Part shown: positions 4,892-60,277 of the stretch, in pieces | Position numbering within the stretch: the first letter of the stretch is position 1 | Layout of the letters: each line of letters begins with the position of its first letter | DNA from: Minisyncoccota bacterium | Lineage (GTDB): Bacteria; Patescibacteriota; Minisyncoccia; Phycocordibacterales; UBA9973 | Assembly (NCBI GenBank): GCA_041659785.1 | Contig: JBAZXO010000001.1 | Span: 86,941-150,940 of the forward strand | Direction: 5' to 3' | Length of the DNA stretch: 64,000 bases | Position numbers and translations under genes: made by a program | Notes under the pieces: generated by a model | Databases searched by the model: none | What the model saw: the letters and a program-made list of their open reading frames with translations, nothing else | What the model was told of the DNA's origin: nothing

Positions 4892-4908
4892 GCAGTATTT
4901 ATTTTAAG

Positions 4909-5151
4909 TTATATTTCTGTCTCGTTAAAATTACTGTTTTCTCTAAAATTATCAAAAGGTTCACTGGGAGCTTCTAGTTCTTTGTAGTCTTTGTACAAGA
5001 GATAACTAAAAAATATAAGAACGAGTCCAGAGACAGTGAACAAGATGTCTTTCCAAGAATAAGAAAATCCCAAGTAAGGCAAAATCGCCATACAAACACC
5101 TAAAATTAAAAGTATACGTGCTTTTCGCATAAATACATTATATTTCATCAA
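4909..5151 (-). CDS. small membrane protein
   Basis: 80-aa ORF with two hydrophobic helices. Confidence 0.3.
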   Translation of the reverse strand: MMKYNVFMRKARILLILGVCMAILPYLGFSYSWKDILFTVSGLVLIFFSYLLYKDYKELEAPSEPFDNFRENSNFNETEI

Positions 5152-5182
5152 TACCTGAAATGCAAATACTAAATTATTTCGA

Positions 5183-6895: not shown

Positions 6896-6910
6896 TTTAA
6901 TTTAGCAAAA

Positions 6911-7174
6911 TTACGAATAGTATTTTACTTTCTTTTTTGTTATTTCTATCACGATTAATAATATTATAGATAAAACAAAAGAAGAAAAAATTATCGTAAA
7001 GTTTTTCGTATCTTTTATCCCATAAAGTAGATCTGATAAAAGTAATAATAAAATTGCTTCCCAGAATATTGGGAAATATGCCATTGCTAAAATAGCTAAT
7101 ATTATAGATAGCCAAATAGGCATGAATAATATTGAGAATAATAGGACAAGAGATGCAAAAATTCGAAGTATCAT
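6911..7174 (-). CDS. small integral membrane protein
   Basis: 87-aa, very hydrophobic ORF immediately upstream of PBP2. The alternative frame 6897..7115 was not preferred. Confidence 0.3.
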   Translation of the reverse strand: MILRIFASLVLLFSILFMPIWLSIILAILAMAYFPIFWEAILLLLLSDLLYGIKDTKNFTIIFSSFVLSIILLIVIEITKKKVKYYS

Positions 7175-7216
7175 TCCTTCATATTACACGTTTTGACTCA
7201 AAATACAAAATATTTT

Positions 7217-8095
7217 TTAGTTAAAAATTAAACGTTTAAGTGCGCGTAGAATATAAAAAAGAATAACAAGAATAGATCCATAAAAGATAAATGGGTTGTT
7301 AACGACAAATGACAAGAAGGTGAAAAAGAAAAGCTCTATATATTTAAATGGTTTTAGAAAACTATTTGATTGAGTGTTTGTGTTGGGTGCACTTTTTGAT
7401 TTAGAAGTGTCAGTTTTTACGGCATCCAAAGCTTTTATCTGACTTTGAACTTCAGCTTTTTTATTATCCGAACTAGTCCCTACGTCGGTACGGAATTGTT
7501 CGACAGCATTTGTGGTAGAGACTATGGGGTCAGATATAAACTTCGGTGTATTCTCCCCTACTATCTTTTGAATAGTTTTTGTTGATTCAGTGCTGGCTGT
7601 ACTGATGGTGTCTAAGATAGAGTTAGCGTTTTTACTCGTATCAGTTGTATTTGTAGTGATTTTTTTTGTTACAGTACGCACACTTTTACTCGTTTCATTT
7701 TCTGCTAAGAATACTTCTTCATATTTACCAGCAGATATTAAAAATTTAGCATTTTCAATCTTGCCGAAGATATTGTGTGTTCCGACATTGGCTGTCCAGT
7801 CTACAGATATGTCCTTGATCCCTTTTGCAGGAGCGACGAAATCTTTCTTAGCTAAAAATACATCATTATCAAAAAATACTACTGTACCCGAGAGTTCTCT
7901 GTTGTCTGGATTGAAAACGAGAGCATATATTTTTATCTTGTCCCCTTCTTCGAAAGGATCTTTTGAATACCAAATATTTCCTGGTACAAAGCCGACATTA
8001 GAATTTTGTGCATGAATATTATTTACTGGCAAGAGAGAAAAAAATAATAACAATATTACTACAATATTTTTCTTTAAATTATTTTCCCATGTCAT
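7217..8095 (-). CDS. hypothetical exported protein with Thr/Ser-rich linker and C-terminal membrane anchor
   Basis: A signal peptide is followed by a beta-rich region, a T/S/N-rich low-complexity segment and a C-terminal TM helix. Confidence 0.4.
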   Translation of the reverse strand: MTWENNLKKNIVVILLLFFSLLPVNNIHAQNSNVGFVPGNIWYSKDPFEEGDKIKIYALVFNPDNRELSGTVVFFDNDVFLAKKDFVAPAKGIKDISVDWTANVGTHNIFGKIENAKFLISAGKYEEVFLAENETSKSVRTVTKKITTNTTDTSKNANSILDTISTASTESTKTIQKIVGENTPKFISDPIVSTTNAVEQFRTDVGTSSDNKKAEVQSQIKALDAVKTDTSKSKSAPNTNTQSNSFLKPFKYIELFFFTFLSFVVNNPFIFYGSILVILFYILRALKRLIFN

Positions 8096-9164
8096 ATTTC
8101 TCGAGGTAAGAAGTTAGCTGTCTACTTACTTTTATAAAAGTAGCTCTTTGAGGGAATTCTTTTAATTGCCTTGCTCCTATGTAGGTGGCTGTGCTTCGGA
8201 GTGAACCCAGCATGTCCTGAATGAAAACGTGTATGTCTCCTTTGTGTGGTATGAGGGTATATCTGCCTTCGCTTGCTCTGTGGGCATCCTTTTTGCCATA
8301 GAAATCTTGCATTGCTTTATTTGAAGAAGAGCCGAAATATTCTTTAAATTTTTGACCATTTTTAACTATAGTTTTACCTCCACTTTGTTCAAAGCCAGAA
8401 AACATTGATCCAAATAAATTAAAATCTGCGCCTCCACAGAAAGCCTTAGCAATGTCTGAAGGATATTGTTGTCCTCCATCGGCGATGATTCTGCCGACAC
8501 TCATACCATTTGCTATTCCGTGTGCAGAGTCCGCACATTCTATGACAGCAGAAAGCTGAGGGTATCCTACACCAGTCATTTTCCTCGTGGTACATGCTGA
8601 GCCTGGGCCGATACCAATCTTTACAATATCTGCTCCAGCTAAAATAATTTCTTCAGTAATTTCATTAGTTGCCACATTTCCTGCGATGATGATATGTTTC
8701 GGACACATCTTCCTGACATCTCTTATCGTTTCAAGGAAATTTTGCAAATATCCGTTTGGCACATCAAGGCAAATAAAAGAAAACTTTTCGAGTAAGCCTT
8801 TTTCTTTCATTAATTTTAATTGTTTGATATCTTGTTCGCGTATTCCTGAGGTGTATGCAATAAAGTCTGGGTCATCAAAAGTTTTAAAAAATTTCTCGTA
8901 ATCTTTAATAGAATAATATTTATGAAAAGTCGTAATCATTTTATACTTGGAAAGTATTTTAGCCATTTCAAAGGTTCCGCACGTGGCCATGTTCGCAGTC
9001 ATTATGGGAATGCCAGTCCACTTTTTAGGAGAGTGGTAAAAAGAAAAAGTCCTCTCGAGGATGACATCTTTCCTAGATTTTAGGGTGCTTCTTTTAGGCC
9101 GAAGCAATACGTCTTGATAATCTAATTTTACATCATCTATTATTCTCATATTTAAAGTATACAC
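8079..9164 (-). CDS. guaC: GMP reductase (IMPDH/GMPR family)
   Basis: Near-colinear similarity to E. coli GuaC: MRI.DD.KL.F.DVLLRPKRSTLKSR, CLDV.NGY and GIGPGS.CTTR. Confidence 0.8.
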   Translation of the reverse strand: MYTLNMRIIDDVKLDYQDVLLRPKRSTLKSRKDVILERTFSFYHSPKKWTGIPIMTANMATCGTFEMAKILSKYKMITTFHKYYSIKDYEKFFKTFDDPDFIAYTSGIREQDIKQLKLMKEKGLLEKFSFICLDVPNGYLQNFLETIRDVRKMCPKHIIIAGNVATNEITEEIILAGADIVKIGIGPGSACTTRKMTGVGYPQLSAVIECADSAHGIANGMSVGRIIADGGQQYPSDIAKAFCGGADFNLFGSMFSGFEQSGGKTIVKNGQKFKEYFGSSSNKAMQDFYGKKDAHRASEGRYTLIPHKGDIHVFIQDMLGSLRSTATYIGARQLKEFPQRATFIKVSRQLTSYLEKYDMGK

Positions 9165-9179
9165 TATTTTTGTTATACT

Positions 9180-10163
9180 GTGATAGTGAAAAATATCGTA
9201 ACAATTGGCGGGGGTACGGGTAGTTATACTGTCCTCTCAGGACTCAAACATATCCCAGATGTTTCTTTGTCTGCGCTTGTTTCTATGGCTGATGATGGCG
9301 GATCTACGGGGGTACTGAGGGATGAGCTCGGTGTATTGCCGCCTGGAGACGTTCGGCAATGTTTGGTGGCACTTTCTGAACATACCGATATAGTACGAAA
9401 GCTTATGAATTATAGGTTTAATGAAGGAACTCTTAAAGGACACAATTTTGGAAATATTTTCCTTGCAGCTCTGGAGAAAGTAACTGGAAATTTTATTGAA
9501 GGTGTCGAAGTGGCATCAGGAATTCTGAAAGTAAATGGTGTCGTGATACCCATAACGAGCAATAAGGCAGAATTATCTATATTGCTTTCCAATGGAAAAT
9601 TAATTGAAGGAGAAAATGAAATCAATCATTCAAATTTACAAGATGTCGGCATTGATAAGATTTTTTATAAAGACAATGTAGAATTAAACGAACACGCGAA
9701 AGAGGCTCTGTTAAAAGCTGATTATGTTATTCTCGGCCCCGGGAATTATTATTGTTCCCTTGTTCCAAATTTGATTGTGAATGGTTTTAAAGAAGCTATT
9801 ATAGAAAGTAAAGCGAAAATTATTCTGCCTATTAACCTCACAAATAAATTAGGACATACTACAAACTTCAAAGTAAGTAACTATGTGAACGATGTAGAGA
9901 AATATCTCGGTAAATTAGTCGATGTTATTTTAGTTAATAATGAAGAGCCATCAGCCGAACAAGTAGAACGATATAAACTTTTAGAAGGTGATGGTGTGCT
10001 CATCGAAGATGACTTCAAGGACGACAGAGTCGTCAGAGCTCCCCTGCTCTCGCATGTATTTTTCGAAAGAGCAGCTGCTGATGTTATACCCAGCACTAAA
10101 GGATTCATCCGTCACGATTCTGAAAAATTAGCTAACCGTATAAAAGAAATAATAAATAAATGA
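9180..10163 (+). CDS. YvcK/CofD-family protein (UPF0052, gluconeogenesis factor-like)
   Basis: IVTIGGGTGSYTVLSGLK...MADDGGSTGVLRDELGVLPPGDVRQCLVAL is the family signature. Confidence 0.8.
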   Translation: MIVKNIVTIGGGTGSYTVLSGLKHIPDVSLSALVSMADDGGSTGVLRDELGVLPPGDVRQCLVALSEHTDIVRKLMNYRFNEGTLKGHNFGNIFLAALEKVTGNFIEGVEVASGILKVNGVVIPITSNKAELSILLSNGKLIEGENEINHSNLQDVGIDKIFYKDNVELNEHAKEALLKADYVILGPGNYYCSLVPNLIVNGFKEAIIESKAKIILPINLTNKLGHTTNFKVSNYVNDVEKYLGKLVDVILVNNEEPSAEQVERYKLLEGDGVLIEDDFKDDRVVRAPLLSHVFFERAAADVIPSTKGFIRHDSEKLANRIKEIINK

Positions 10164-35230: not shown

Positions 35231-36259
35231 TTAAACGCTAAATTTAGAAATATTGTACAAATCAGTATCATCTTTTTCTGTTTCTTCTTTTGTTCTGTCG
35301 TCGAGAGGAGCTTCTTCTGCTATAGCTACTTCTTCTGTCGGACGTTGGGCGTCCGAATTTTCTTCAGGTGTTTTTGTTATAGTATTTTGCGCAATATAAT
35401 TCTCCATCATTTCCGTTGGATTTTTTTGTATCTCTCCCTTATGAATTAGGTCTAGAATTGTACGCAAGTCTTCAGTAGAAAAGAAATCGATTTTAATTTG
35501 TCCACCGAGCTCTTTCCTATCTATATGTACGCGAGTGCCGAGCTTTTCTTGGAATTCTTCTTCGAGCTCAGATATCTCTGGATCAGGCATAAATTCTTTC
35601 TTACGGACACGGTCATAAGCAATCTTACGAGCTAATCTTTCTGCTTCACGAACGGTTATCTTTTTATATACAATTTCTTTAAATAAAACTAATTGCTCTT
35701 CTGGATGATCTGCGAGCATTAATATTGGTCTGGTGTGCCCCTCTGTAATCTTGCCTTCTGATAGAGCATTCAAAATTTCTTCAGGTAAGGTTAAAATACG
35801 TAAAGAGTTGGATACGTATTCCCTGCTTCTGCCCATTTTTTTGGCAATTTCGGCATGAGTAAATTTAAATTCGCTGACTAATCGAAGGAAAGCTCGTGCG
35901 CGATCGACAGCATTTAAGTCTTCGCGTTGTAAGTTTTCAATAATTGCAAGCTCAAGCTTCATTATCGCTGTGTCTCCTGTGCGAATGACCACAGGTACTT
36001 GTGAGACTTGAGCTAATTTTGCTGCACGAAGTCTGCGTTCTCCTGCAATCAATTCATATTCTGTAACAAGTCCACCTCCACCTTCTTTCTCGAGCTCTAC
36101 ACGAGAGACGATAAGTGGCTGAAGGACTCCGTATTGTTTTATTGAGTCAGCTAAATCTTGAAGTCTGGCTTCATCGAAATCTCGCCTTGGCTGAAAGGGG
36201 TTTGGTTTTATTTTATCGGTGTCAATCCAGAAAATTGAATTGGAATATAAATTAGACAT
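35231..36259 (-). CDS. parB: chromosome partitioning protein ParB/Spo0J
   Basis: ParB N-domain with GERRLRAAKLA and IIENLQREDLN, plus an HTH. Confidence 0.85.
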   Translation of the reverse strand: MSNLYSNSIFWIDTDKIKPNPFQPRRDFDEARLQDLADSIKQYGVLQPLIVSRVELEKEGGGGLVTEYELIAGERRLRAAKLAQVSQVPVVIRTGDTAIMKLELAIIENLQREDLNAVDRARAFLRLVSEFKFTHAEIAKKMGRSREYVSNSLRILTLPEEILNALSEGKITEGHTRPILMLADHPEEQLVLFKEIVYKKITVREAERLARKIAYDRVRKKEFMPDPEISELEEEFQEKLGTRVHIDRKELGGQIKIDFFSTEDLRTILDLIHKGEIQKNPTEMMENYIAQNTITKTPEENSDAQRPTEEVAIAEEAPLDDRTKEETEKDDTDLYNISKFSV

Positions 36260-36294
36260 GGATTGATTCTAGCATATTTTTTTTAAAAATATAA

Positions 36295-36323
36295 TTGATT
36301 TTATGCTGAATATGAAGTAAAAT
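36295..36323 (+). promoter_or_regulatory. putative sigma70-like promoter for tRNA-Leu/murA (TTGATT, 17 bp spacer, TAAAAT)
   Basis: -35 at 36295-36300 and -10 at 36318-36323, about 20 nt upstream of the tRNA 5' end. Confidence 0.4.
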
Positions 36324-36342
36324 GTTGAAACGGTGTGGATAA

Positions 36343-36426
36343 GCCCGGGTGGCGGAATTGGTAGACGCGATAGACTCAAAATCTATTGTTGGCAACAACA
36401 TGAGAGTTCGATTCTCTCCCCGGGCA
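36343..36426 (+). tRNA. tRNA-Leu (anticodon CAA), long variable arm
   Basis: Acceptor GCCCGGG/CCCGGGC, anticodon loop CTCAAAA, long variable arm and T-arm GAGAG TTCGATT CTCTC. CCA is not encoded. Confidence 0.85.
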
Positions 36427-36432
36427 CATTTT

Positions 36433-37764
36433 ATGAAAAATAAAAAAGCACAATTAAGTAATTCGATTGATTTCCAAGTAAATGGTGGGAAGAAATTGAG
36501 CGGGAGTATTAAAACAAACTTTTCTAAAAATGGTTCTGTCGGACTTTTGTGTGCTTCACTTTTAAACAAGGGCACGACTACCCTACACGGTATTGCAAGA
36601 ATCGAAGAAGTAAATAGAGTTATTGAAATTTTAGAAAGCATCGGAGTGAAGGTTAAATGGAGTGACAAAAATACAGTTATAATTACTCCGCCCAAGAAAT
36701 TTAATTTAAAAAATATAAATGTTGAGTCAGCTATTAGGACTCGCTCTGTCGTAATGTTGATAGGGCCCTTGGTTCACTACCTTTCTTCTTTTTCTCTACC
36801 TCACGCGCAGGGATGCAATCTAGGTAAACGTACAATCGCTGCGCATATTTATGCTTTAGAAGAATTCGGTATAAAAATAAAAACTACCTCAATAGATTAT
36901 GAAATTACTGCCAAGAAATTAAAGCCAACAGAGATAGTAATGTATGAAACTGGAGAAACTGCTTGTGAGAACACTCTGTTCGCTGCAGCCTTGATCGATG
37001 GGGCTACCACCATAAGCTTCATGAGTAATAATTATATGGTTCAAGAAATTTGTTTCTTCCTTGAGACTCTCGGAGTAAAAATCGATGGCGTTGGAACTTC
37101 TACTCTAGTCGTTCATGGAGTTAAAGAAATAAACAAAAATGTTGAATATTGGAATAGTGAAGACCCCATAGAATCTATGATGTTTATTTCGGCTTGTATT
37201 GTTACAGACTCAAAACTCACCATAACCAGATGTCCAATCGACTTCCTTTCCCTAGAACTTGAAAAATTACGCAGGATGCATTTAAAATTTAAGATCTTAA
37301 AGAGATATTATTCTTACAACGGCCGTACGAAGCTCGCTGATATAGAAATTTTCCCAAGTAAATTGATAGCACTTCAAGATAAAATACACGCCAATATTTA
37401 CCCTGGAATCAATATCGACAATCTTCCATTTTTCGTACCTATCGCAATAAAAGCAAAAGGTCAGACAATGATTCATGACTGGTTCTATGAAGTACGAATG
37501 ATATATATGACAGAATTGAATCGCCTTGGTGCAAACATAAACCTCACAGATCCGCATCGCCTCTATATCCAAGGTGGCACACCATTAAAAGCCGCTCAGG
37601 TTGTCTGTCCTCCAGCACTTCGTCCGTCGATGGTTATCCTCATTTCAATGCTCGGAGCTCCTGGAACTTCAATCCTTAGAAATGTCTATATGATAAATCG
37701 TGGCTATGAAGAAATAGCAAAACGTCTAAACTCTATTGGTGCAGATATTAAAATACTAAAGTAA
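36433..37764 (+). CDS. murA: UDP-N-acetylglucosamine 1-carboxyvinyltransferase
   Basis: The C-terminus INRGYEEIAKRLNSIGADIKIL matches the MurA end ([22 protein letters not shown]). The start was moved to MKNKK, since the ORF-track start overlaps the tRNA. Confidence 0.85.
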   Translation: MKNKKAQLSNSIDFQVNGGKKLSGSIKTNFSKNGSVGLLCASLLNKGTTTLHGIARIEEVNRVIEILESIGVKVKWSDKNTVIITPPKKFNLKNINVESAIRTRSVVMLIGPLVHYLSSFSLPHAQGCNLGKRTIAAHIYALEEFGIKIKTTSIDYEITAKKLKPTEIVMYETGETACENTLFAAALIDGATTISFMSNNYMVQEICFFLETLGVKIDGVGTSTLVVHGVKEINKNVEYWNSEDPIESMMFISACIVTDSKLTITRCPIDFLSLELEKLRRMHLKFKILKRYYSYNGRTKLADIEIFPSKLIALQDKIHANIYPGINIDNLPFFVPIAIKAKGQTMIHDWFYEVRMIYMTELNRLGANINLTDPHRLYIQGGTPLKAAQVVCPPALRPSMVILISMLGAPGTSILRNVYMINRGYEEIAKRLNSIGADIKILK

Positions 37765-38645
37765 TGAAAAAAGTTATTGTAATATTGGGACAGACTGCTA
37801 CAGGTAAAAGTAATTTGGCTGTTAAGATTGCTAAGAAAATAAGTGGCGAGATAATTTCTGCTGATTCTAGGCAAGTTTATAAAGGTCTAGATATCGGCTC
37901 AGGTAAAATATCTAAAAAAGATATGAAGGGCATACCCCACTATCTACTTGATGTGGCAAATCCTAAAAATAAATTTACCGTCACAGAATTCCAACAAAAA
38001 GCAATCTACGCTATCGCTGAGATTATAAAAAATGGCAAGACACCCATCATTTGTGGAGGAACAGGATTTTATCTTGATGCTATAACTAAAGGCGTAGTTT
38101 TCCCCGAAGTTCCACCAAATATTAAACTTCGAAAAATTTTAGAAAAGAAATCTGAAATAGAATTAATCAAAATATTAAAAAAACTTGACCTCAGGCGCGC
38201 TAAAAATATTGATGTAAAAAATAAAGTCCGCCTGATTAGAGCGATAGAGATAGCTAAGGCCTTGGGTAAGGTTCCCGAGGTGACAGAGATGAAACCCATT
38301 TATAAATTTATAAAAATAGGATTGTATTTACCTGAAAATTTACTGAAAAAAAATATAGAAAAAAGGGTAAAAAAGATGTTTAAAGACGGCTTACTAAATG
38401 AAATAAAAAAACTTAAAAAGCCTGCCCGCCTTGGAGGGGCTGGGATTTCTAAGAAAAGGCTTCAAGAATTCGGCTTCGAATACAATGAACCCACTTATGA
38501 AAAAGTCGTAATAGAAACACTTAAATATGCCAAAAGACAAATGACTTGGTTTAAACGCGACAAAGAAATAAAATGGGTGGATGCCAGTCTCGCCGAGCCT
38601 AGGCAGACATCGAAAAATACAGATGCTATAATTAAAAAATTATGA
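37764..38645 (+). CDS. miaA: tRNA dimethylallyltransferase
   Basis: ILGQTATGKSNLA P-loop and ISADSRQVYKGLDIG. Confidence 0.85.
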   Translation: MKKVIVILGQTATGKSNLAVKIAKKISGEIISADSRQVYKGLDIGSGKISKKDMKGIPHYLLDVANPKNKFTVTEFQQKAIYAIAEIIKNGKTPIICGGTGFYLDAITKGVVFPEVPPNIKLRKILEKKSEIELIKILKKLDLRRAKNIDVKNKVRLIRAIEIAKALGKVPEVTEMKPIYKFIKIGLYLPENLLKKNIEKRVKKMFKDGLLNEIKKLKKPARLGGAGISKKRLQEFGFEYNEPTYEKVVIETLKYAKRQMTWFKRDKEIKWVDASLAEPRQTSKNTDAIIKKL

Positions 38646-38983
38646 AAACATTAATACATTTTATTGTTTCTACTTTAGCCATATTAATAACAGCTTATTT
38701 TTTACCAGGAGTACATGTAACGGGTCTACTCGCTGCGCTTGTGTTAGCAGTCGTACTAGGAGCCATCAATGTTATCTTGCGTCCAATACTAATATTCCTT
38801 ACATTGCCACTCACAATAATAACACTCGGCCTTTCTGTGCTGTTTATCAATGGCTTTCTTGTAATGCTCGCGAGCTATATCGTGCCTGGATTTAAAGTAG
38901 ATAGTTTCTGGTGGGCATTTTTATTCGGCATTGTCCTCGCTATCGTAAACTGGGTTTTGCAAATGTTTGAACAAGGAGAATAA
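38642..38983 (+). CDS. DUF360/YvlD-like 4-TM membrane protein (phage holin 4 superfamily)
   Basis: 113 aa with 4 TM helices and LPGVHVTG...VLGAINV.LRPIL pattern. Confidence 0.55.
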   Translation: MKTLIHFIVSTLAILITAYFLPGVHVTGLLAALVLAVVLGAINVILRPILIFLTLPLTIITLGLSVLFINGFLVMLASYIVPGFKVDSFWWAFLFGIVLAIVNWVLQMFEQGE

Positions 38984-39010
38984 AAATTGTTAAGTATTAA
39001 TACGTTAATA

Positions 39011-39039
39011 TTGACAAATAACACTTAGAATGCTATTAT
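39011..39039 (+). promoter_or_regulatory. strong sigma70-like promoter (TTGACA, 17 bp spacer, TATTAT) for the GC-rich orphan gene
   Basis: Consensus -35 at 39011-39016 and -10 at 39034-39039. It is followed by a ~150-nt leader containing a 13-bp stem (39086-39098 / 39134-39146). Confidence 0.5.
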
Positions 39040-39195
39040 ATTTTTAAATAAAATGTTCCTTAAATAAATATTAGCAAGGAAAGTATTTTGGTGGTAGCAC
39101 AATGAAAATCTAAATTAAGGAGGTTTTTATCGCGCTACCACCAAAAAACCCTGTAGCTTTGAGGGTGGACGAGATTCCACAACACAGGAGAATAC

Positions 39196-39684
39196 ATGCG
39201 CGATTTGAAATTTATCCAAAACCTTGAGGTTTATACCTCATCTGTTACCCATAAGGAGCTCAGCCAGGAAGCAGCAAGGTTGAAGCCCCCTGCTCTGAAT
39301 GGTGGAAAATTTGTTGGGATTCTTCCCGAGCCGCTCAGATGGCTCTGGGCCTACATTTCTCGCACCCAGAAAAACCTCGAGGAGAGGATCAACAAAATTG
39401 ACCTGGAGATGCTCAGCAAAAATACAAAGGAGAAAAACGCTGCTCTCGACGATGAAATTCAAGCTTCCATCCAAGAGATTCGGAATCTGTACGATTTTTT
39501 CTGGATCGCTACGTGTAGCGAGCTCAACCTCCAGAATAACCACAATTTCAGCGTATGCAAGGATTGGGCGATCCACTACGCCGACCCCATCTGCATTGGC
39601 AGCAGGGATGGTCACCCGGAAGAAGGCATCAGCCTTTCGATTCATTTTATCGACATCTCCGACCTCTTCAAAAACCACAACTAG
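39196..39684 (+). CDS. hypothetical 162-aa protein encoded by a compositionally distinct (GC-elevated) gene
   Basis: SD AGGAG lies 7 nt upstream of the ATG. Local GC is about 47-50% versus about 33% background. It has its own promoter and terminator. Overlapping ORFs in other frames are treated as artefacts of the high GC. Confidence 0.5.
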   Translation: MRDLKFIQNLEVYTSSVTHKELSQEAARLKPPALNGGKFVGILPEPLRWLWAYISRTQKNLEERINKIDLEMLSKNTKEKNAALDDEIQASIQEIRNLYDFFWIATCSELNLQNNHNFSVCKDWAIHYADPICIGSRDGHPEEGISLSIHFIDISDLFKNHN

Positions 39685-39705
39685 CCCATCAATCACCCAC
39701 CCATG

Positions 39706-39739
39706 CCCCGGCCAAAAGCTGGGGTTGTTTTTTTATTTA
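39706..39739 (+). terminator. rho-independent terminator (CCCCGGC-caaaa-GCTGGGG followed by TTGTTTTTTTTATTT)
   Basis: 7-bp GC stem with one G-U pair followed by a U-run, directly after the stop at 39684. Confidence 0.55.
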
Positions 39740-40002
39740 GTAAAATTTTTAATCCACCACTTTTTAATAAAAGGCAAAGATTGAACAGAGATAAAATACC
39801 CTATTGGTGGAACAAGAGCATTTAAATAATAATTTCCTGTCCCGATAAAATACAAAACTTTTACTGCAATTAAATAGATAATTGCTGAAATAAGTAAAAC
39901 GCGAAAATAACTTGTCTCCCAGGCTTTATCAGCTTCCACTCTTAAATTTCTCTCTTTAATAAGTTCAACTTCTTTTTCTAATTTTTGAATTCTTTCTTCC
40001 AT
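39733..40002 (-). CDS. hypothetical membrane protein
   Basis: 89 aa with an N-terminal coiled-coil-like segment and two TM helices. Confidence 0.35.
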   Translation of the reverse strand: MEERIQKLEKEVELIKERNLRVEADKAWETSYFRVLLISAIIYLIAVKVLYFIGTGNYYLNALVPPIGYFISVQSLPFIKKWWIKNFTK

Positions 40003-40021
40003 AAAATTATTTATTAAGCGG

Positions 40022-40092
40022 CGGGCGATGAGGGAATCGGACCCCCGCCAAAGGTTTTGGAGACCTTCGTTCTACCACTAAACTAATCGCCC
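40022..40092 (-). tRNA. tRNA-Trp (anticodon CCA)
   Basis: Reverse complement folds as acceptor GGGCGAT/ATCGCCC, D-arm GTTT..GAAC, anticodon stem AAGGT/ACCTT with loop CTCCAAA, and T-arm GGGGG TCCGATT CCCTC. Confidence 0.8.
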
Positions 40093-40103
40093 GTATGATT
40101 TAA

Positions 40104-40128
40104 ATAACAAAAAACGACCCTAGGTCGT
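40104..40128 (-). terminator. terminator hairpin for rpmG (ACGACC-tag-GGTCGT followed by U-run on minus strand)
   Basis: Inverted repeat acgacc/ggtcgt with a flanking A/T run, about 40 nt downstream of the L33 stop. Confidence 0.5.
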
Positions 40129-40167
40129 TTTAGTATAGCAGAAAAGCAAAGAAAATATAAGCAAAAT

Positions 40168-40326
40168 CTATTTTTTGACTTCCTTATGCTTCGTCTGCTT
40201 TCGGCACCATTTGCAGTATTTTTTAAGCTCGATTTTTTTAGTAACGAGTTTCTTGTTCTTGCTGGACCAGTAATTTATCCTTTTGCAAGTCGTACAGGCA
40301 AGTTTTATAAGTCTATCTTGTGACAT
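40168..40326 (-). CDS. rpmG: 50S ribosomal protein L33 (52 aa; below ORF-track size cutoff)
   Basis: Manual translation of the minus strand: MSQDRLIKLACTTCKRINYWSSKNKKLVTKKIELKKYCKWCRKQTKHKEVKK. This matches the L33 C-x2-C...C-x2-C zinc ribbon and consensus. Confidence 0.8.
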   Translation of the reverse strand: MSQDRLIKLACTTCKRINYWSSKNKKLVTKKIELKKYCKWCRKQTKHKEVKK

Positions 40327-40362
40327 GTATATAGATTAATATAAAAAACGATTAAATGCAAG

Positions 40363-41541
40363 CTAAATAACGACTCTAGGCAACAGAGCACTAATACGTG
40401 TAGTTATTTCATAATTAATAGTATTTATACGCAAGGCCAACTCTTCGGCTGTAATTTCTTCCTTATTTTGAGCCCCGATAATTATAACTTCATCTTCTAC
40501 TTTTACATTTTTAAGATGGCTAACATTTACTACCAGCATATTCATCATTACTCGTCCTAATATTTTACATTTTGTGCCACTAATTAAGACAAAGCCATTA
40601 TTCGAAAAACCACGATCAAATCCATCAGCATAACCCTGAGGAATGATGGCAACTTTGGTTTCCTTGTTTGTTTTATAAGTTAAACCATAACCAATGGTGT
40701 TCCCTTTCGGTAAAGTTTTAATTTGTGCAATTTTTGTTTTCCAAGAGAGTACAGGCTTCAAACTAAATTTAGTTTTATAAAAATCTTTCAAATGCTCCGA
40801 AGGCCACAGGCCATACACACCGATACCAAGACGTACAAGTGGATGAATTCCTTCGCTCTTTTCATAAACCAAGAGTCCAGAAGTTGCAGAGATATGTGTT
40901 AGGAAGCTTGCCCCGCCTTGGCGTGGGTTTTTAAAACCATTTTCTTCTGCAATAGAGAGAGCTTTCTTATATTCTAAAATTTGTTTCTTTGCATGAGAGA
41001 AATCAGTGGTGTCTTCAATGTTCGCAAAGTGCGCATACATACCAGTAAGTTTTATAAATCCTGCCCGTCCTTTGACGTGGTTATGTTTTTTAATTTCTGC
41101 AAAAAGTTTAGGTAGTTCTTTCAAGAGAAAACCTTCTCTGCCGAGATAAGCATCTACTGGCACATGAATTTCTTGAACCTTTTTTAACATTTCAGCCATG
41201 GCTGAAATGTGTTCTAATTGATCTAAAGAAAAAACTGATAATACGCAACCTAATTTAATGGCTTCTTTTAAATCTAATTTTTGTACGTATCCTAAGACCA
41301 ATGTCTTTTTTGAGCTTATTTTACGTAATAATTTAAGCTCCTCGATACTATCAACTTGAAAATAGTCTACATGGGGTTCTAATATTTTTGCTATTTCATT
41401 CTGTCCGTGGCCATAAGCATTACCCTTTATGGCAACAGAAAATTTAGTTCCCTTTTTAGCTACACTTTTTAAAACTTTGATATTATGAATCAAATTTTTA
41501 CTAGAAAGTTCTATATATGAAAGTGGTAAATCTTTTTTCAC
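40363..41541 (-). CDS. alr: alanine racemase
   Basis: AIKGNAYGHG PLP-lysine motif and a C-terminal beta domain. Confidence 0.85.
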   Translation of the reverse strand: MKKDLPLSYIELSSKNLIHNIKVLKSVAKKGTKFSVAIKGNAYGHGQNEIAKILEPHVDYFQVDSIEELKLLRKISSKKTLVLGYVQKLDLKEAIKLGCVLSVFSLDQLEHISAMAEMLKKVQEIHVPVDAYLGREGFLLKELPKLFAEIKKHNHVKGRAGFIKLTGMYAHFANIEDTTDFSHAKKQILEYKKALSIAEENGFKNPRQGGASFLTHISATSGLLVYEKSEGIHPLVRLGIGVYGLWPSEHLKDFYKTKFSLKPVLSWKTKIAQIKTLPKGNTIGYGLTYKTNKETKVAIIPQGYADGFDRGFSNNGFVLISGTKCKILGRVMMNMLVVNVSHLKNVKVEDEVIIIGAQNKEEITAEELALRINTINYEITTRISALLPRVVI

Positions 41542-41545
41542 AATA

Positions 41546-42511
41546 TTATTTAACAGTAGTTTTTAATTTCTGTTCTCTTTTAAATCTCTCAATTGCAAGA
41601 TTAATTAATTTATCTAAAAGCTTCGGCAATGGTAGTCCACTTGCTTCCCACAACTTCGGATACATACTGATAGCAGTAAATCCAGGTAAGGTATTTATCT
41701 CATTTACTAGAACATCTCCATTTTTTTTCAGGAAAAAGTCTACTCGACTTAAGCCTTCACAATTTAACGTTTGGAATGTTTTAATAGCCAATTCTTGAAT
41801 TTTCTTTGTTGTTTTTTTATCAATCTTTGCGGGAATTTCTGCCACTGATCCAGCATCTATATACTTCGCGTCATAAGAATAAAAATCTTGATTAGCAATA
41901 ATCTCACCAGGAATAGATGCTATGGGCATATCATTACCTAATAGAGCACATTCTATCTCTCGTCCTTTTATAAATTCTTCAATAATTATTTTTGAATCGT
42001 ATTTAAATGCATCACTAATTCCTTTTTTAAATTCTTTTTCATTTCGTACTTTACTTATCCCTACTGATGAACCCATATTGGCGGGTTTAATAAACATTGG
42101 CGAACCTAATTCCTTTTTTATTTTATTAAAATTTATTTTGTCATTTTCCTTAATAGCAACAAATTTTCCAATTGGAATGCCTGCGTCTCGAAGAATTCTT
42201 TTCATTATCTCTTTATCCATACCGACAGCTGAACCAAGAACACTGGGACCAATAAATGGCACCCCTGCGAGCTTCAGAAGTCCTTGCATACTACCATCTT
42301 CACCAAAAGGTCCATGCATTACTGGAAAAATAACATCAAAATTTTTAATAATGTTTAAATTAAATTTACCAGATCTATCTATTTTTATTGGAGTTACTAG
42401 ATATTTTGTTTTATCTAGGGCATTTATCACATTCTTTGCAGACACCAAAGACACCTCGTGCTCGGCTGATTTGCCTCCGAAAAGGACACCAATTTTTATT
42501 TTCCTTATCAT
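41546..42511 (-). CDS. ddl: D-alanine--D-alanine ligase
   Basis: KIGVLFGGKSAEHEVSL start and ATP-grasp motifs. Confidence 0.9.
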   Translation of the reverse strand: MIRKIKIGVLFGGKSAEHEVSLVSAKNVINALDKTKYLVTPIKIDRSGKFNLNIIKNFDVIFPVMHGPFGEDGSMQGLLKLAGVPFIGPSVLGSAVGMDKEIMKRILRDAGIPIGKFVAIKENDKINFNKIKKELGSPMFIKPANMGSSVGISKVRNEKEFKKGISDAFKYDSKIIIEEFIKGREIECALLGNDMPIASIPGEIIANQDFYSYDAKYIDAGSVAEIPAKIDKKTTKKIQELAIKTFQTLNCEGLSRVDFFLKKNGDVLVNEINTLPGFTAISMYPKLWEASGLPLPKLLDKLINLAIERFKREQKLKTTVK

Positions 42512-42537
42512 AGAAAACAGTATACTCCGATTTTATC

Positions 42538-43638
42538 TTAGAGCAATTTAACTACATCATGATAAGTGATGATGATCATGAGCAAAATCAGAAGACCAAA
42601 ACCAATCATATTTGCAGTATTGGCAACTTTGGGATTCATCCTTGAGCCTTTAATTTTTTCGATAAGTAAAAAGAATAATCGTCCGCCATCAAGCGCTGGA
42701 AATGGAAGCAAATTTATTATAGCGAGGTTAATTGAAATTAAAGCTGCAAAAGAAAGAAGATAAACAAAACCAAACTGATAAGCATCTCCGACGATACCTA
42801 CCATTCCGACTGGCCCAGTAACAGCAGCAAAGCTACCTTTACCCCTTATACCCTCATAAATAAGCGTATAAAGCCCAACAGCGGTACCTTTAGTCATATT
42901 CCAGTCTAAACGCAGCCCCTCAAAAATAGCTGTAAAAAAGGGCAATTTAGCCGTCCCAATCTCATCCATAGATATACCTATTGCAGGCTTTCCATCAGTA
43001 GGGCTCACGACTGGAGTTACTTTCGCTAAATTAATCTCTGTATTTTTACCACGTATATATCCGATATCAATTTCTTTTCCCCCACTTCCAACAACAAAAG
43101 ATTTAATAGACTCGGGACTTACGAAGGTCGTAAAATTGTCACCACTTTTTATATTTACAATTTTGTCTCCAATCTTTAATCCAGCTTTTTCCGCAGGAGA
43201 TTTCGCTAAAACAGAAACGACTACTAAATTTATATCTTGGAGTTTAAAACCCGCTCTTTCACTACCAACTGAAGTCGGAAGTCCAGACATAAAACCAATA
43301 GAAAACAAAAGCCAAGCTAATAAAAAGTTAGCGAAGATTCCAGCAAATAGAACTATCGCTTGTTTCCATTTTGCTTTATTTACGAAACTTCTCTCAGCAT
43401 CAGGGCCAGTAGTGTTTTCTTCATCTGGATTCTCACCAAAAATTTTAACAAAGCCACCAATAGGTAATAAATTAAAAGTATATTCCGTCTCCCCTTTTTT
43501 AAAACCAAATAACTTTGGCGGAAAGCCAAAACCAAATTCATCTACTCTAATACCAAACTTTTTCGCAGTAAAAAAATGCCCAAACTCGTGGACTAAAACT
43601 AATACCAATAAAATTACGATAAAAATTACGATACTCAT
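42538..43638 (-). CDS. rseP: RIP metalloprotease RseP (site-2 protease, M50 with PDZ)
   Basis: HEFGHFFTAKKFG HExxH, PDZ segment and a C-terminal LDGG motif. Confidence 0.85.
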   Translation of the reverse strand: MSIVIFIVILLVLVLVHEFGHFFTAKKFGIRVDEFGFGFPPKLFGFKKGETEYTFNLLPIGGFVKIFGENPDEENTTGPDAERSFVNKAKWKQAIVLFAGIFANFLLAWLLFSIGFMSGLPTSVGSERAGFKLQDINLVVVSVLAKSPAEKAGLKIGDKIVNIKSGDNFTTFVSPESIKSFVVGSGGKEIDIGYIRGKNTEINLAKVTPVVSPTDGKPAIGISMDEIGTAKLPFFTAIFEGLRLDWNMTKGTAVGLYTLIYEGIRGKGSFAAVTGPVGMVGIVGDAYQFGFVYLLSFAALISINLAIINLLPFPALDGGRLFFLLIEKIKGSRMNPKVANTANMIGFGLLILLMIIITYHDVVKLL

Positions 43639-44986: not shown

Positions 44987-44995
44987 CGATTTTGT

Positions 44996-45038
44996 GTCGG
45001 ACGTCCAACGTCTAGAATTCGGACGTTGGACGTCCGAC
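44996..45038. repeat. perfect 17-bp GC-rich inverted repeat (GTCGGACGTCCAACGTC / GACGTTGGACGTCCGAC) with a 9-nt spacer containing GAATTC
   Basis: Arms at 44996-45012 and 45022-45038 are exact reverse complements. The repeat lies immediately 3' of the mreB stop. Confidence 0.6.
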
Positions 45039-45042
45039 AAGA

Positions 45043-48122: not shown

Positions 48123-48515
48123 TTGAGATACATACACGTAAAAGCCGATGATAATCGGCCTCACCTATTTGGGTTCCAAGGAAACCCAAGCAAGGCCAAA
48201 CAATCGGCAGAAAAAAGTTATGGAAAAGGGAGATTGTTTATTCCCTTTCACTTAACGCCCAATGTTCCCAGGGTCATAGATGAAATAATATTCTTTCATC
48301 ACCCCAGCGAAACGCCGTTCGTGAAAAAAAACATCGAAGCAAATAAGCTTTTCGGGTGGATTGATTCGGAATTTGATGGAGACCCTGGCGAGATATTCAT
48401 TCTCTACCACGAACCATCTAATCATGTCGCACAAGCCCCCCTCCTCCAACAAAGGAGAAAGAAAAAGCCAAGAGGCCGTTGGCGTCGCTATCGTCAACAA
48501 CAAGAAGCCGCATAA
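48123..48515 (+). CDS. hypothetical protein, GC-elevated orphan gene with TTG start and basic C-terminal tail
   Basis: SD GAGGAGG precedes the TTG. About 45% GC. A terminator follows at 48536. The opposite-strand ORF 48252..48503 was not preferred. Confidence 0.35.
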   Translation: MRYIHVKADDNRPHLFGFQGNPSKAKQSAEKSYGKGRLFIPFHLTPNVPRVIDEIIFFHHPSETPFVKKNIEANKLFGWIDSEFDGDPGEIFILYHEPSNHVAQAPLLQQRRKKKPRGRWRRYRQQQEAA

Positions 48516-49405: not shown

Positions 49406-49951
49406 CTAAGCCGCTAAAAATTTCTGTGGCTCAAGAATTGGTTTTTTTGTCTTTTCACGAAAACACGGGGTTATGTCACCTGGCATCAGGTAATCTTCCA
49501 ACCATAGCCAACCTATTTCGACTCTACCCCTTCGTGCACAGACAAATGGAACGTAGTAGGAATACTGTAACCCCTTTTTGGGATTCATTTCAGCTTGTTT
49601 CACTACTGACTTCCACAAAAGAAGTTTTTTATCCCCGAAAGCTTTAAGAAAAGGCTCAACACCATTTTCTCGGATAGCGTAACCGTCCAACAAACCCAAA
49701 CAAGAGTTTATAAGCGGAAGAAAAGTGATGGTGCTTTGTTGTATATATTCAAATACTTCCTTTGCTTTTATTTTTATATTATTTCTTTGATTGGGGTGTA
49801 ACCAAAGCTCCAAGGAGCCAAGCCTATACTCGAGAAACCCAGTATGCTCGAGCTCCAGTAATACTGGTTTTCTGTTATACGGATAATAAGGACAATCCGT
49901 CCGTTTCACGATAATATAATCGGAAACAGCTTGTGCTAAAGTTTTGCTCAT
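49406..49951 (-). CDS. hypothetical protein (moderately GC-elevated)
   Basis: 181-aa ORF with no motif I recognise. It is followed by a strong terminator. Confidence 0.4.
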   Translation of the reverse strand: MSKTLAQAVSDYIIVKRTDCPYYPYNRKPVLLELEHTGFLEYRLGSLELWLHPNQRNNIKIKAKEVFEYIQQSTITFLPLINSCLGLLDGYAIRENGVEPFLKAFGDKKLLLWKSVVKQAEMNPKKGLQYSYYVPFVCARRGRVEIGWLWLEDYLMPGDITPCFREKTKKPILEPQKFLAA

Positions 49952-50079: not shown

Positions 50080-50535
50080 TTATTTTCTATACTTTCGGGT
50101 GCGCCATTTATCTGCAATCTTTATTCGAGTGAGTGAACGTTCAAGTTCAGCTTCAAAATGTTCAAAATCAACATTATCTTTATTCTCCATTAATTTCTTT
50201 AATTCTTCTGAACGAGTTCTAGCTTGAGCGATTTTCTCTTCTGAAAGTTCTGCGACGTGTTCAGCGAAATCAGCCAATACAGCAACTTCTGTGTCCCCTT
50301 TTTCATTTTGTTTCACTTCCACGAAACCTCCCACCACAGCCATGGGTACATGTTCAGCATTTATAAATGCGACAACGTCTCCTGAAGTGAGCCCTGTGAT
50401 TAAGGGAATATGATTTGGCAATACTGTTATCTCACCCAGAGTAGTAGGTAAACTAACTTGGTCTACCATTTCTTCCAAGACCAATCTCTCGGGAGTTACT
50501 ATTTTTAATTTTAATTGCTTCATAGATGAGTTCAT
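50080..50535 (-). CDS. atpC: F1Fo ATP synthase epsilon subunit
   Basis: LKIVTPERLV..VLPNHIPLITGL consensus. Confidence 0.85.
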   Translation of the reverse strand: MNSSMKQLKLKIVTPERLVLEEMVDQVSLPTTLGEITVLPNHIPLITGLTSGDVVAFINAEHVPMAVVGGFVEVKQNEKGDTEVAVLADFAEHVAELSEEKIAQARTRSEELKKLMENKDNVDFEHFEAELERSLTRIKIADKWRTRKYRK

Positions 50536-59959: not shown

Positions 59960-60277
59960 TTAGTATTCTCGGCGTCCTCCTCCACTGTATCCACCTCGGT
60001 CATTTCCGCCAGTTCTTGGTGGGCGAGCTTCCATAGGGCGAGCTTCGTTGACAGTAAGCTTACGTCCTTCAAAATCTTGATCATTAAACATAGAAATAGC
60101 TTTTGAAGCTTCATCTTGTGATGACATTTCTACGAATCCAAAACCTTTTGAACGACCAGACATTTTGTCCATGATAATCACAGCAGAAACAACGTTTCCA
60201 GCTTGTGCGAAGAGCTCTTTAAGAGCATCCTCTTGTGTACTGTAAGGTAATCCCCCTACATATAGCTTTGTAGCCAT
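59960..60277 (-). CDS. RRM-type RNA-binding protein with Gly/Arg-rich tail
   Basis: RNP2 LYVGGL, RNP1 KGFGFVEM, and a C-terminal RGG/GGYSGGG tail. Confidence 0.8.
   Translation of the reverse strand: MATKLYVGGLPYSTQEDALKELFAQAGNVVSAVIIMDKMSGRSKGFGFVEMSSQDEASKAISMFNDQDFEGRKLTVNEARPMEARPPRTGGNDRGGYSGGGRREY

Follow-up and report, generated by a model that had tools for sequence, protein, structure and literature searches.

How did a small GC-rich gene, with a promoter, a folded leader and a terminator of its own, come to stand among the ordinary housekeeping genes of an AT-rich genome, and what does its leader do? The question is raised by a unit at positions 39011-39739 of a 64-kb stretch (the window; 35.8% GC) of a metagenome-assembled genome of Candidatus Paceibacterota, in the candidate phyla radiation. 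The unit carries a 162-aa open reading frame (ORF) whose product was deposited as a hypothetical protein encoded on a 318-kb contig. A first-pass annotation had seen in it a horizontally acquired resistance or stress gene under leader-peptide or attenuation control. Our comparison with related loci suggests otherwise. Very probably, taking these points jointly, the gene encodes a cytoplasmic, fast-evolving and undescribed protein, its leader holds a conserved RNA structure of two hairpins (P1 and P2), the mini-ORF of the leader is incidental, the high GC content at third codon positions (GC3) is family-wide, and part of the unit has been exchanged recently. With moderate confidence we propose, beyond this, an autonomous and predicted strongly transcribed single-gene unit, long resident in its Paceibacterota group, that would be controlled through its 5' untranslated region (5' UTR).

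A self-contained unit

The features of the unit, in order along the + strand, are as follows (SD, Shine-Dalgarno).

39011-39016, + strand: -35 hexamer TTGACA, read directly
39031-39039, + strand: extended -10 element TGCTATTAT, with TG at 39031-39032 and TATTAT at 39034-39039
39046, + strand: predicted transcription start, deduced from the -10 position alone; 5' UTR of about 150 nt
39054-39060, + strand: conserved pyrimidine box GUUCCUU, close to the transcript's 5' end and a candidate anti-SD sequence
39083-39149, + strand: leader hairpin P1, in which 39086-39111 pairs with 39121-39146
39102-39113, + strand: mini-ORF ATG AAA ATC TAA inside the 5' arm of P1, judged incidental
39117-39123, + strand: SD-like AAGGAGG, from the end of the P1 loop into the start of the 3' arm, judged incidental
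39165-39180, + strand: hairpin P2 (GUGGA, loop CGAGAU, UCCAC), five pairs
39186-39190, + strand: SD sequence AGGAG, 5 nt before the ATG of the 162-aa ORF
39196-39684, + strand: 162-aa ORF, which belongs to a small, uncharacterised family of proteins
39685-39704, + strand: C-rich 3' UTR CCCAUCAAUCACCCACCCAU, GC 0.55
39705-39735, + strand: intrinsic terminator, stem 39705-39725, then T-rich tail TGTTTTTTTA

This is the layout of a self-contained monocistronic unit, as had been proposed, with promoter, structured leader and terminator all present. The two promoter hexamers are 17 nt apart and match consensus at 11 of 12 positions, with the TG extension in addition. Five close leaders were compared, those of the window, of L001 (a locus from another Paceibacterota genome) and of L004, L005 and L006; TTGACA is unchanged in all five alignable leaders, the TGn extension is kept in all five close ones, and TTGACA also stands 5' of the gene in the distant members L003, L008, L017 and L018, the last of which has a -10 region reading TGCTATAAT. 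Near-consensus hexamers, spacing and conservation together point to a promoter of the sigma-70 type. It had been called the strongest in the window, which is fair for its combination of a perfect -35 hexamer, 17-nt spacer and TG, found in it alone among the eight top sites of the window, but by hexamer count it is tied, as eight sites including this one reach 11 of 12. Promoter-like sites as a class are not enriched in the window over shuffles (44 found against 49 expected).

At the other end, the terminator stem has eight pairs, six of them G-C, followed by the T-rich tail, so that the reported terminator was found and is probably of the intrinsic (rho-independent) type. Its stem is kept in L001, L004, L005 and L006, with a G·U pair replaced by A-U in L004. 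C-rich tracts like that of the 3' UTR also occur in L001, L004 and L006. We considered and rejected an integron gene cassette: the unit has its own conserved promoter, and its imperfect palindrome lies 5' of the ORF, inside the transcript. We saw no integrase gene in the list of ORFs from 36000 to 43000, and the attC consensus was compared by eye only.

A conserved RNA structure in the leader

The 13-bp stem first noticed in the leader (39086-39098 with 39134-39146) is indeed there, and it proves to be the base of a longer hairpin, P1, with 29-nt arms (39083-39111 and 39121-39149) that are 83% complementary; 24 pairs form over 26 positions, with two 1x1 mismatches and a 9-nt loop. The 155-nt leader has a folding energy of -44.6 kcal/mol (z = -4.98), and none of 200 shuffles folds as well. 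By consensus fold and pair counts across the five close leaders, six of the 24 P1 pairs are changed on both sides, while P2 is paired in all five, its closing A-U having become G-C in L004 and L006. For the 29 pairs of P1 and P2 together, 97.9% of cells are paired, as opposed to 42-53% in slid controls, and seven pairs are changed on both sides; the paired fraction was reached by none of 500 shuffles and the number of doubly changed pairs by one. Two G·U pairs in P1 and P2 are invariant across the five leaders, and the structure therefore appears to reside in the + strand RNA. The apical loop of P1 varies freely. Promoter and leader can still be aligned, at 70-89% leader identity, between lineages with proteins 33-46% identical. 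P1 and P2 thus have the properties expected of a conserved structured RNA element of the 5' UTR, on the + strand. At the same position, the distant loci L002 and L018 have 24-bp hairpins of unrelated sequence (z = -6.9 and -7.5).

The leader RNA is absent from Rfam and has not been previously described. At the gathering threshold, Rfam returned four tRNAs in the window and nothing else, and the highest-scoring sub-threshold match on the region, to a miRNA model, reached 28.5 bits where 90 are required and is of the generic hairpin kind. A search with an Infernal-type model had been recommended for finding the leader in relatives: the leader is conserved in L001, L004, L005 and L006, but the covariance model R1 added no further copy, recovering only its own training leaders and a reverse-strand echo of the hairpin. 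A pattern scan for P1 in metagenome and viral contigs gave a single chance match, inside a transposase gene (L014). A repeated palindrome of the repetitive extragenic palindrome (REP) or miniature inverted-repeat transposable element (MITE) kind was rejected, as neither the arm sequence nor model R1 has a second copy in the 64-kb window. Many small genes of candidate phyla radiation bacteria are unannotated and very few regulatory RNAs are known from them; a 5' UTR structure that is conserved, supported by covariation and absent from Rfam is a testable RNA element.

Both the MKI-stop mini-ORF and AAGGAGG exist where the first-pass annotation had placed them. The mini-ORF is retained in L004 only: in L001 it reads ATG-TGA, in L005 it is open with no nearby stop, and in L006 ACG replaces ATG. 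AAGGAGG shrinks in the relatives to AGG, the part that belongs to the stem. All relatives have an SD-like run of purines ahead of the start codon. The SD of the gene lies outside both P1 and P2, no alternative terminator/antiterminator pairing is present in the leader folds, and P1 is itself unlikely to be a terminator because an A-run (AAAAAA), not a U-run, comes after it. We judge the mini-ORF and AAGGAGG to be incidental. Leader-peptide attenuation of the erm/cat type fails here in two of its defining tests, and this part of the earlier proposal is not borne out by the comparison.

An undescribed, fast-evolving protein

The 162-aa ORF, with AGGAG 5 nt upstream as had been read, is in all likelihood protein-coding, on several grounds: the GC pattern of its codon positions, frame-specific ratios of nonsynonymous (dN) to synonymous (dS) divergence, relatives at the protein level, conserved motifs and a confident structural model. 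Against the 94%-identical L001 orthologue, dN/dS is 0.27 in frame and 1.1-1.6 in the two other frames. Overlapping genes at 39299-39784 (+) and 39238-39696 (-) were rejected, being no longer than after synonymous shuffling and having dN/dS above 1.

A full HMMER scan of 1.84 billion representative proteins gave 13 relatives (E-values between 4e-37 and 1e-4), among them a repeat protein, P0012, that was rejected as a spurious match. A word-indexed protein search returned only the query protein itself, and a profile search of the same database added two members. The true relatives are 150-190 aa long and share the motifs LPExLxKLW, FFW and W.VYY..P.C..C..RH (alignment A1). An AlphaFold model built from 12 sequences (predicted local distance difference test score, pLDDT, 80; predicted template modelling score, pTM, 0.73) gives a helical bundle together with a small sheet of three strands; the tail, which carries the Cys/His motif, is poorly modelled. 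The knuckle of the family is Cys-x2-Cys-x3-His, with the second-position Cys in 10 of the 12 aligned members. The window copy reads CIGSRDGH (C133, S136, H140), where Ser stands for the second Cys, and L001 has T136; the window copy thus appears to lack the complete ligand set of a C-x2-C-x3-H zinc knuckle. One member (P0009) has an N-terminal membrane helix followed by RQRRR, and the family domain would therefore be cytoplasmic.

Profile, fold and structure-prediction checks match no known family or solved fold, in agreement with the first impression of an unrecognised protein, and we regard the family as not previously described. The best Pfam matches of the members are isolated, each found in one of 12; the best NCBIfam match is SocB, at 15 bits against a cutoff of 210; PHROGs and PADLOC gave no consistent match for the family; matches to PDB sequences have E-values of at least 0.11, and Foldseek matches in PDB and BFVD of at least 0.3. 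The fold and family searches returned nothing beyond generic helical bundles. A phage, plasmid or defence origin has no support from tblastn, PHROGs or PADLOC, and was set aside. We likewise do not support a resemblance to DksA, ZAS or SocB. The zinc-knuckle coiled-coil proteins of small size, DksA/TraR and the ZAS anti-sigma factors (HxxxCxxC), share with the family, of about 150-190 aa, long antiparallel helices and a C-terminal Cys/His cluster, but C-x2-C-x3-H is in the reverse order to ZAS, with three ligands only and degenerate in the window copy, and the Foldseek comparison with DksA (E = 3.9, TM 0.24) indicates no similarity, with no Pfam match.

Long residence at the locus

A holin-family membrane protein gene (Pfam scan) lies directly 5' of the unit and tRNA-Trp (ARAGORN) directly 3', with ordinary housekeeping genes around them; from their ORF translations we take the neighbours to be a ParB-like gene and those for MurA, MiaA, L33, alanine racemase, Ddl and RseP. 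The family gene stands at the same locus in L001, L004, L005 and L006, beside genes for Vut_1, an aldehyde dehydrogenase (ALDH) and a thiamine pyrophosphate (TPP) enzyme, and tRNA-Trp lies 3' of it in L001 and L004, where the contig extends that far. Synteny between L001 and the window extends from the ParB-like gene as far as rpmG. In L004, whose protein is 46% identical, the order is Vut_1, ALDH, TPP enzyme, family gene, tRNA-Trp, rpmG, and the left neighbours are the same in L005 (39% identical) and L006 (33%). Between L001 and L004 the family gene has a dS of 1.33, compared with 1.1-2.1 for its neighbours, and a dN of 0.41, compared with 0.04-0.07 for ALDH, the TPP enzyme and Vut_1. With dS similar and dN much higher, the gene therefore seems to have diverged together with its locus while the protein changed 6-10 times faster. 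A family that evolves at this pace, yet is held at a fixed locus, is unusual.

The ORFs from 36000 to 43000, a few of them scanned with Pfam and the rest read by eye, showed no integrase or transposase. By the two marks of a recently acquired island, absence of the gene from the locus in relatives and presence of mobility genes, the unit does not appear to be one.

The segment between the holin-family gene and tRNA-Trp (window 38984-40019) differs in gene content among the relatives. L001 has there a 3.8-kb block of Vut_1, aldehyde dehydrogenase and TPP-enzyme genes (4050-7880) and a HIT-domain gene (8811-9316), both absent in the window; the block and the HIT gene are partly present in L004-L006. 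Facing the unit in the window is a convergent 89-aa gene (39733-40002, - strand), a predicted two-helix membrane protein with no Pfam match that is 98% identical in L001; L005 carries a different 89-aa gene inserted there. As a conserved partner of the family gene it was rejected, being common only to L001 and, in part, L005; the distant loci have other neighbours. In L018 (8558-9181 and 10001-10495) the family member lies beside a gene for an RRM-domain protein and the ATP synthase operon, neighbours that are orthologous to window genes at about 50-60 kb (including 59960-60277).

A recent exchange with a related lineage

Superimposed on this long residence is one recent event.

39150-40313, no strand assigned: tract of recent recombination or transfer with L001, its left breakpoint within the 3' arm of P1 or immediately beyond it

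From about 39150 to at least 40313 the window is 94-96% identical to L001, against 77-85% for the genes to the left; the right end of the tract lies beyond 40313, which makes it at least 1.2 kb long and places the convergent 89-aa gene within it. Along the unit, the promoter is 73% identical to that of L001, the 5' leader 43% and P1 72%; identity then rises to 96% across the linker, P2 and SD and to 96.5% in the ORF. In dS between window and L001, the ORF (0.087) and the 89-aa gene (0.26) lie well below three left-flank genes (0.96-1.6). Because promoter and P1 of the window are nearest L004 (87-89%) and the ORF nearest L001, the unit is to be seen as a mosaic. These values show that part of it was swapped recently with a related lineage, presumably by homologous recombination. 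Gene exchange, as first suggested, is therefore visible as a tract shared with L001, but the foreign acquisition that had been derived from GC content is a separate claim. With the three closest family sequences as query, a search for related loci found L001 alone in genomes and nothing in viral contigs.

High GC3 as a family trait

The contrast in composition on which that claim was built is real. The ORF has 47.6% GC (GC1 0.48, GC2 0.33, GC3 0.62), as against 35.8% for the window, so that the background of 33% originally quoted was slightly low. The 61 other ORFs of the window, which served as the reference set for GC3, have a mean of 0.288 (standard deviation 0.061, maximum 0.436), which puts the 162-aa ORF at z = 5.4, a strong outlier in codon composition. 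Its composition deviates as that of a genomic island does. The relatives from hosts of low or moderate GC behave in the same way: with GC3 of 0.46-0.84, the family gene is an outlier of its locus or among the highest there.

L001: family gene GC3 0.60; neighbours 0.19-0.27
L004: family gene GC3 0.56; neighbours 0.28-0.30
L005: family gene GC3 0.63; neighbour 0.24
L006: family gene GC3 0.46; neighbours 0.16-0.26
L002: family gene GC3 0.73; neighbours 0.20-0.37
L003: family gene GC3 0.58; neighbour 0.44
L008: family gene GC3 0.84; no neighbouring gene on the contig; flank GC 0.36
L009/L011: family gene GC3 0.54; some small neighbours as high, 0.23-0.56
L018: family gene GC3 0.73; neighbours 0.29-0.50; an unrelated 207-aa neighbour also 0.73

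Only in L017, from a host of 49% GC, is the family gene compositionally native, with GC3 of 0.63-0.66 compared with 0.58 for the neighbour. L017 holds a tandem array (1076-2945) in which a 178-aa member is followed by one of 275 aa with an internal duplication and by the beginning of another gene, with a TTGACA promoter 5' of the 275-aa gene and of the truncated third, and near-identical terminators 3' of the first two. The GC3-rich 207-aa neighbour in L018 is not related to the family.

Since the same deviation is found in every relative from a low- or moderate-GC host, it dates no acquisition here, and high GC3 is best regarded as a trait of the family rather than a mark of recent import. 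Taken together with the shared locus in four relatives and the neighbour-like dS, this removes the basis on which the gene had been called horizontally acquired. The case is a caution for GC-based calls in general: GC3 stands 0.2-0.5 above the host across lineages with saturated synonymous sites, and "recently acquired" would be wrong here.

Both G-ending and C-ending codons are enriched in the family gene. Outside the ORF, the linker, P2 and the 3' UTR are GC-rich (0.50-0.55), which the 5' leader and P1 are not. Ordinary expression-linked codon bias fails as a cause, because the ATP synthase and ribosomal protein genes of the window have no GC3 excess. The excess has three candidate causes: gene conversion may be biased at this recombining locus, the mRNA may be under selection, or alleles from a GC-richer pool may have replaced the gene repeatedly. 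The GC-biased gene conversion hypothesis links recombination to GC3 enrichment in bacterial genes (PMC4450053). Our gene resembles that case in its direct evidence of recombination, its raised GC3 and its GC-rich non-coding linker and 3' UTR, and differs in that the effect is very large (+0.2 to +0.5 GC3) and limited to one gene of about 0.6 kb. The locus is thus a small natural test of GC-biased gene conversion against mRNA selection in bacteria.

What the leader may do, and competing explanations

On the explanation we favour, the leader would set expression after transcription, through the 5' UTR. In its specific form, the GUUCYUU box near the 5' end would pair with the purine-rich SD and close a domain enclosing P1 and P2, limiting the access of ribosomes or shielding the mRNA, while the long double-stranded P1 would offer a handle for a double-strand-specific factor (RNase III or a helicase) that opens or processes the leader. 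What keeps GC3 high and the 3' UTR C-rich would be a force acting on the gene itself, either mRNA selection or GC-biased repair at a recombination hot spot. The combined box-SD and P1 mechanism is put forward tentatively, as a possibility that we think is rather less than even. In its favour, GUUCYUU or UUCNUU stands at +7 to +11 in seven of ten leaders, the distant L002 and L018 included, and at +20 in L003; in seven leaders the best duplex of box and ribosome-binding site has z between -1.5 and -3.8; and L002 and L004, in their minimum-energy folds, join the box to the SD region. A pyrimidine stretch that sequesters the SD from upstream is familiar from ROSE and fourU thermometers. The conserved UUCYUU of the family is likewise complementary to AGGAG, but the pairing here is a candidate, weak, long-range (about 125 nt, around two hairpins) and outside the consensus fold.

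Several observations weigh against this explanation. The transcription start and any processing are predictions only. The box-SD pairing is weak, at -5 to -10 kcal/mol, and is missing from the RNAalifold consensus; in the window's own fold the box pairs with GAGGG of the linker instead; and the duplex is no better than shuffles in L003 (z = -0.5) and weaker than they are in L018 (z = +0.9). L008 and L009 have neither the box nor the long hairpin. The covariation counts carry limited weight because they come from five close leaders, all related, and three distant ones. Finally, the mRNA of the coding region folds only slightly more strongly than synonymous shuffles (z of -0.3 to -2.4, negative in 8 of 8), and strong selection on its structure was rejected, the trend being weak.

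The main rival to the box-SD version, somewhat less probable still in our estimate, is that P1 is purely an element of mRNA processing or stability (an RNase III site or a barrier to 5' decay) that sequesters no SD, the box being something else, for instance a protein or DNA operator at +10. Processing and stability hairpins in 5' UTRs are well established, as in the RNase III sites of the E. coli rnc and pnp leaders and the ompA 5' stem-loop, and the double-stranded substrates of RNase III, including the rnc and pnp leaders, are of the same length class as the roughly 24 bp of P1. With about 24 bp over 26 positions P1 would suit such a role; its stem length and pairing are conserved where the loop, and in distant loci the whole sequence of the stem, vary; and a strong promoter, GC-rich body and strong terminator fit an abundant, stable mRNA. 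P1 thus shares with the rnc, pnp and ompA hairpins a long, near-perfect stem in the 5' UTR with pairing conserved over loop sequence, but it is not at the extreme 5' end, has no sequence relation to the described elements and matches nothing in Rfam. Because it begins about 37 nt from the predicted 5' end it would be no 5'-terminal protective stem-loop, and the conservation of the box is left without account. Far less probable, and largely refuted by the comparison, is the original model of a recent foreign resistance or stress gene controlled by MKI stalling or transcription attenuation. A short ORF and AAGGAGG in a stable hairpin, a GC3 outlier at z = 5.4 and a recently exchanged tract all speak for it, and the ORF and hairpin recall the leader-peptide attenuators of ermC, cat and cmlA, where a short ORF and a stable hairpin likewise precede a stand-alone gene. 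The leader ORF is kept in L004 only, however, and AAGGAGG is not conserved; the SD of the gene is outside P1 and P2; the hairpin precedes an A-run and so is no terminator, and alternative pairings are absent; the gene is syntenic in four related lineages with a neighbour-like L001-L004 dS; and its product has no similarity to the resistance, phage, plasmid or defence families searched.

For the composition of the gene, the alternative is foreign ancestry: the family would have its home in lineages with a GC content near 50%, that of L017 among them, and would have reached AT-rich hosts by an old transfer with incomplete amelioration or by repeated allele replacement, the swaps crossing over in the conserved leader and in the terminator and tRNA flanks. 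We consider this unlikely, if by no means negligible. The L017 genes match their neighbour in GC3 and stand in tandem, in three units or more; the recombination tract, which is observed directly, has a breakpoint within the leader, and the unit is a mosaic of L004-like and L001-like parts; and L006, with the lowest GC3, looks part-ameliorated. Co-divergence, on the other hand, predicts the agreement in dS between gene and neighbours that L001 and L004 show; synonymous sites in the subclade are saturated (proportion of synonymous differences, pS, 0.62-0.83) while GC3 is still 0.46-0.63; and no donor was found, the viral scan being empty, the genome scan giving only L001 and the hairpin pattern scan of the metagenome collection one chance match. 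The least probable of the explanations is a non-coding or dual-function structured RNA in which the ORF is a by-product of stop-poor, GC-rich sequence. GC-rich patches in AT-rich genomes are often RNA genes, the unit is such a patch, and three ORFs of 152-162 aa overlap here in different frames. The region, however, matches no Rfam family (at gathering and permissive thresholds) and no tRNA or tmRNA (ARAGORN); the other frames are no longer than after synonymous shuffling, with dN/dS above 1; the GC excess lies at the third codon positions of one frame; and the relatives are detected as proteins, each with an SD-like purine run before the start. As the sole explanation, an RNA gene may be taken as refuted.

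The unit may, though we doubt it more than we believe it, exemplify an undescribed, family-wide expression module of Paceibacterota-like bacteria. Such a module would have a promoter with a consensus extended -10 element, a pyrimidine box near the 5' end, a 5' UTR hairpin with a long stem of about 24 bp, a C-rich 3' UTR and a strong terminator, around a hyper-evolving ORF that stays at roughly 50-60% GC in hosts anywhere from 31 to 49% GC. Were that so, the leader of the module would be a new class of cis-regulatory RNA, the GC3 excess would reflect direct mRNA selection or a bacterial hot spot of GC-biased gene conversion, and the rapid change of the protein would be driven by a conflict or interaction in which it takes part. 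The kind of system, a gene with a cis-acting structured leader, is familiar, and no new kind of mechanism is indicated yet.

Other observations in the window

A second, smaller orphan at 48123-48515 had been set beside the unit for its similar layout. It exists and is GC-elevated (TTG start, 130 aa, 44.5% GC), with a promoter and a downstream stem-loop, but it is probably an ordinary, syntenic, lineage-specific gene: its relatives, at 76-80% identity, lie in the same place between a 515-656-aa gene and a TP_methylase gene, and its GC excess falls mainly on first codon positions (GC1 0.54, GC3 0.43, z = 2.3). A link between the two orphans was rejected, as hhalign gives a probability of 0.06% and the proteins are unrelated. 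The C-terminal tail of the second orphan is strongly basic (RRKKKPRGRWRRYRQQQ). In L015 the called start of its homologue comes right after a -10-like TATAAT, a hint that the mRNA may be leaderless or may have a different start.

Nearby, a 181-aa ORF (49406-49951, - strand) with no Pfam match and a terminator-like stem-loop of its own (49383-49365) lies between the TP_methylase gene and a 151-aa ORF (50080-50535), presumably the last of the ATP synthase genes. A 17-nt palindromic motif, CGGACGTTGGRCGTCCG, occurs three times in the window (35339-35355, 44998-45014 on the - strand, and 45020-45036) where none is expected by chance; two of the copies together make up a perfect 19-bp hairpin (44995-45039) where a gene ends, and the motif may belong to a small palindromic repeat element. 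For the MurA-like gene, the mechanical ORF call (36349-37764) begins inside tRNA-Leu(CAA) (36343-36427), and the true start of that gene is therefore likely to lie further downstream.

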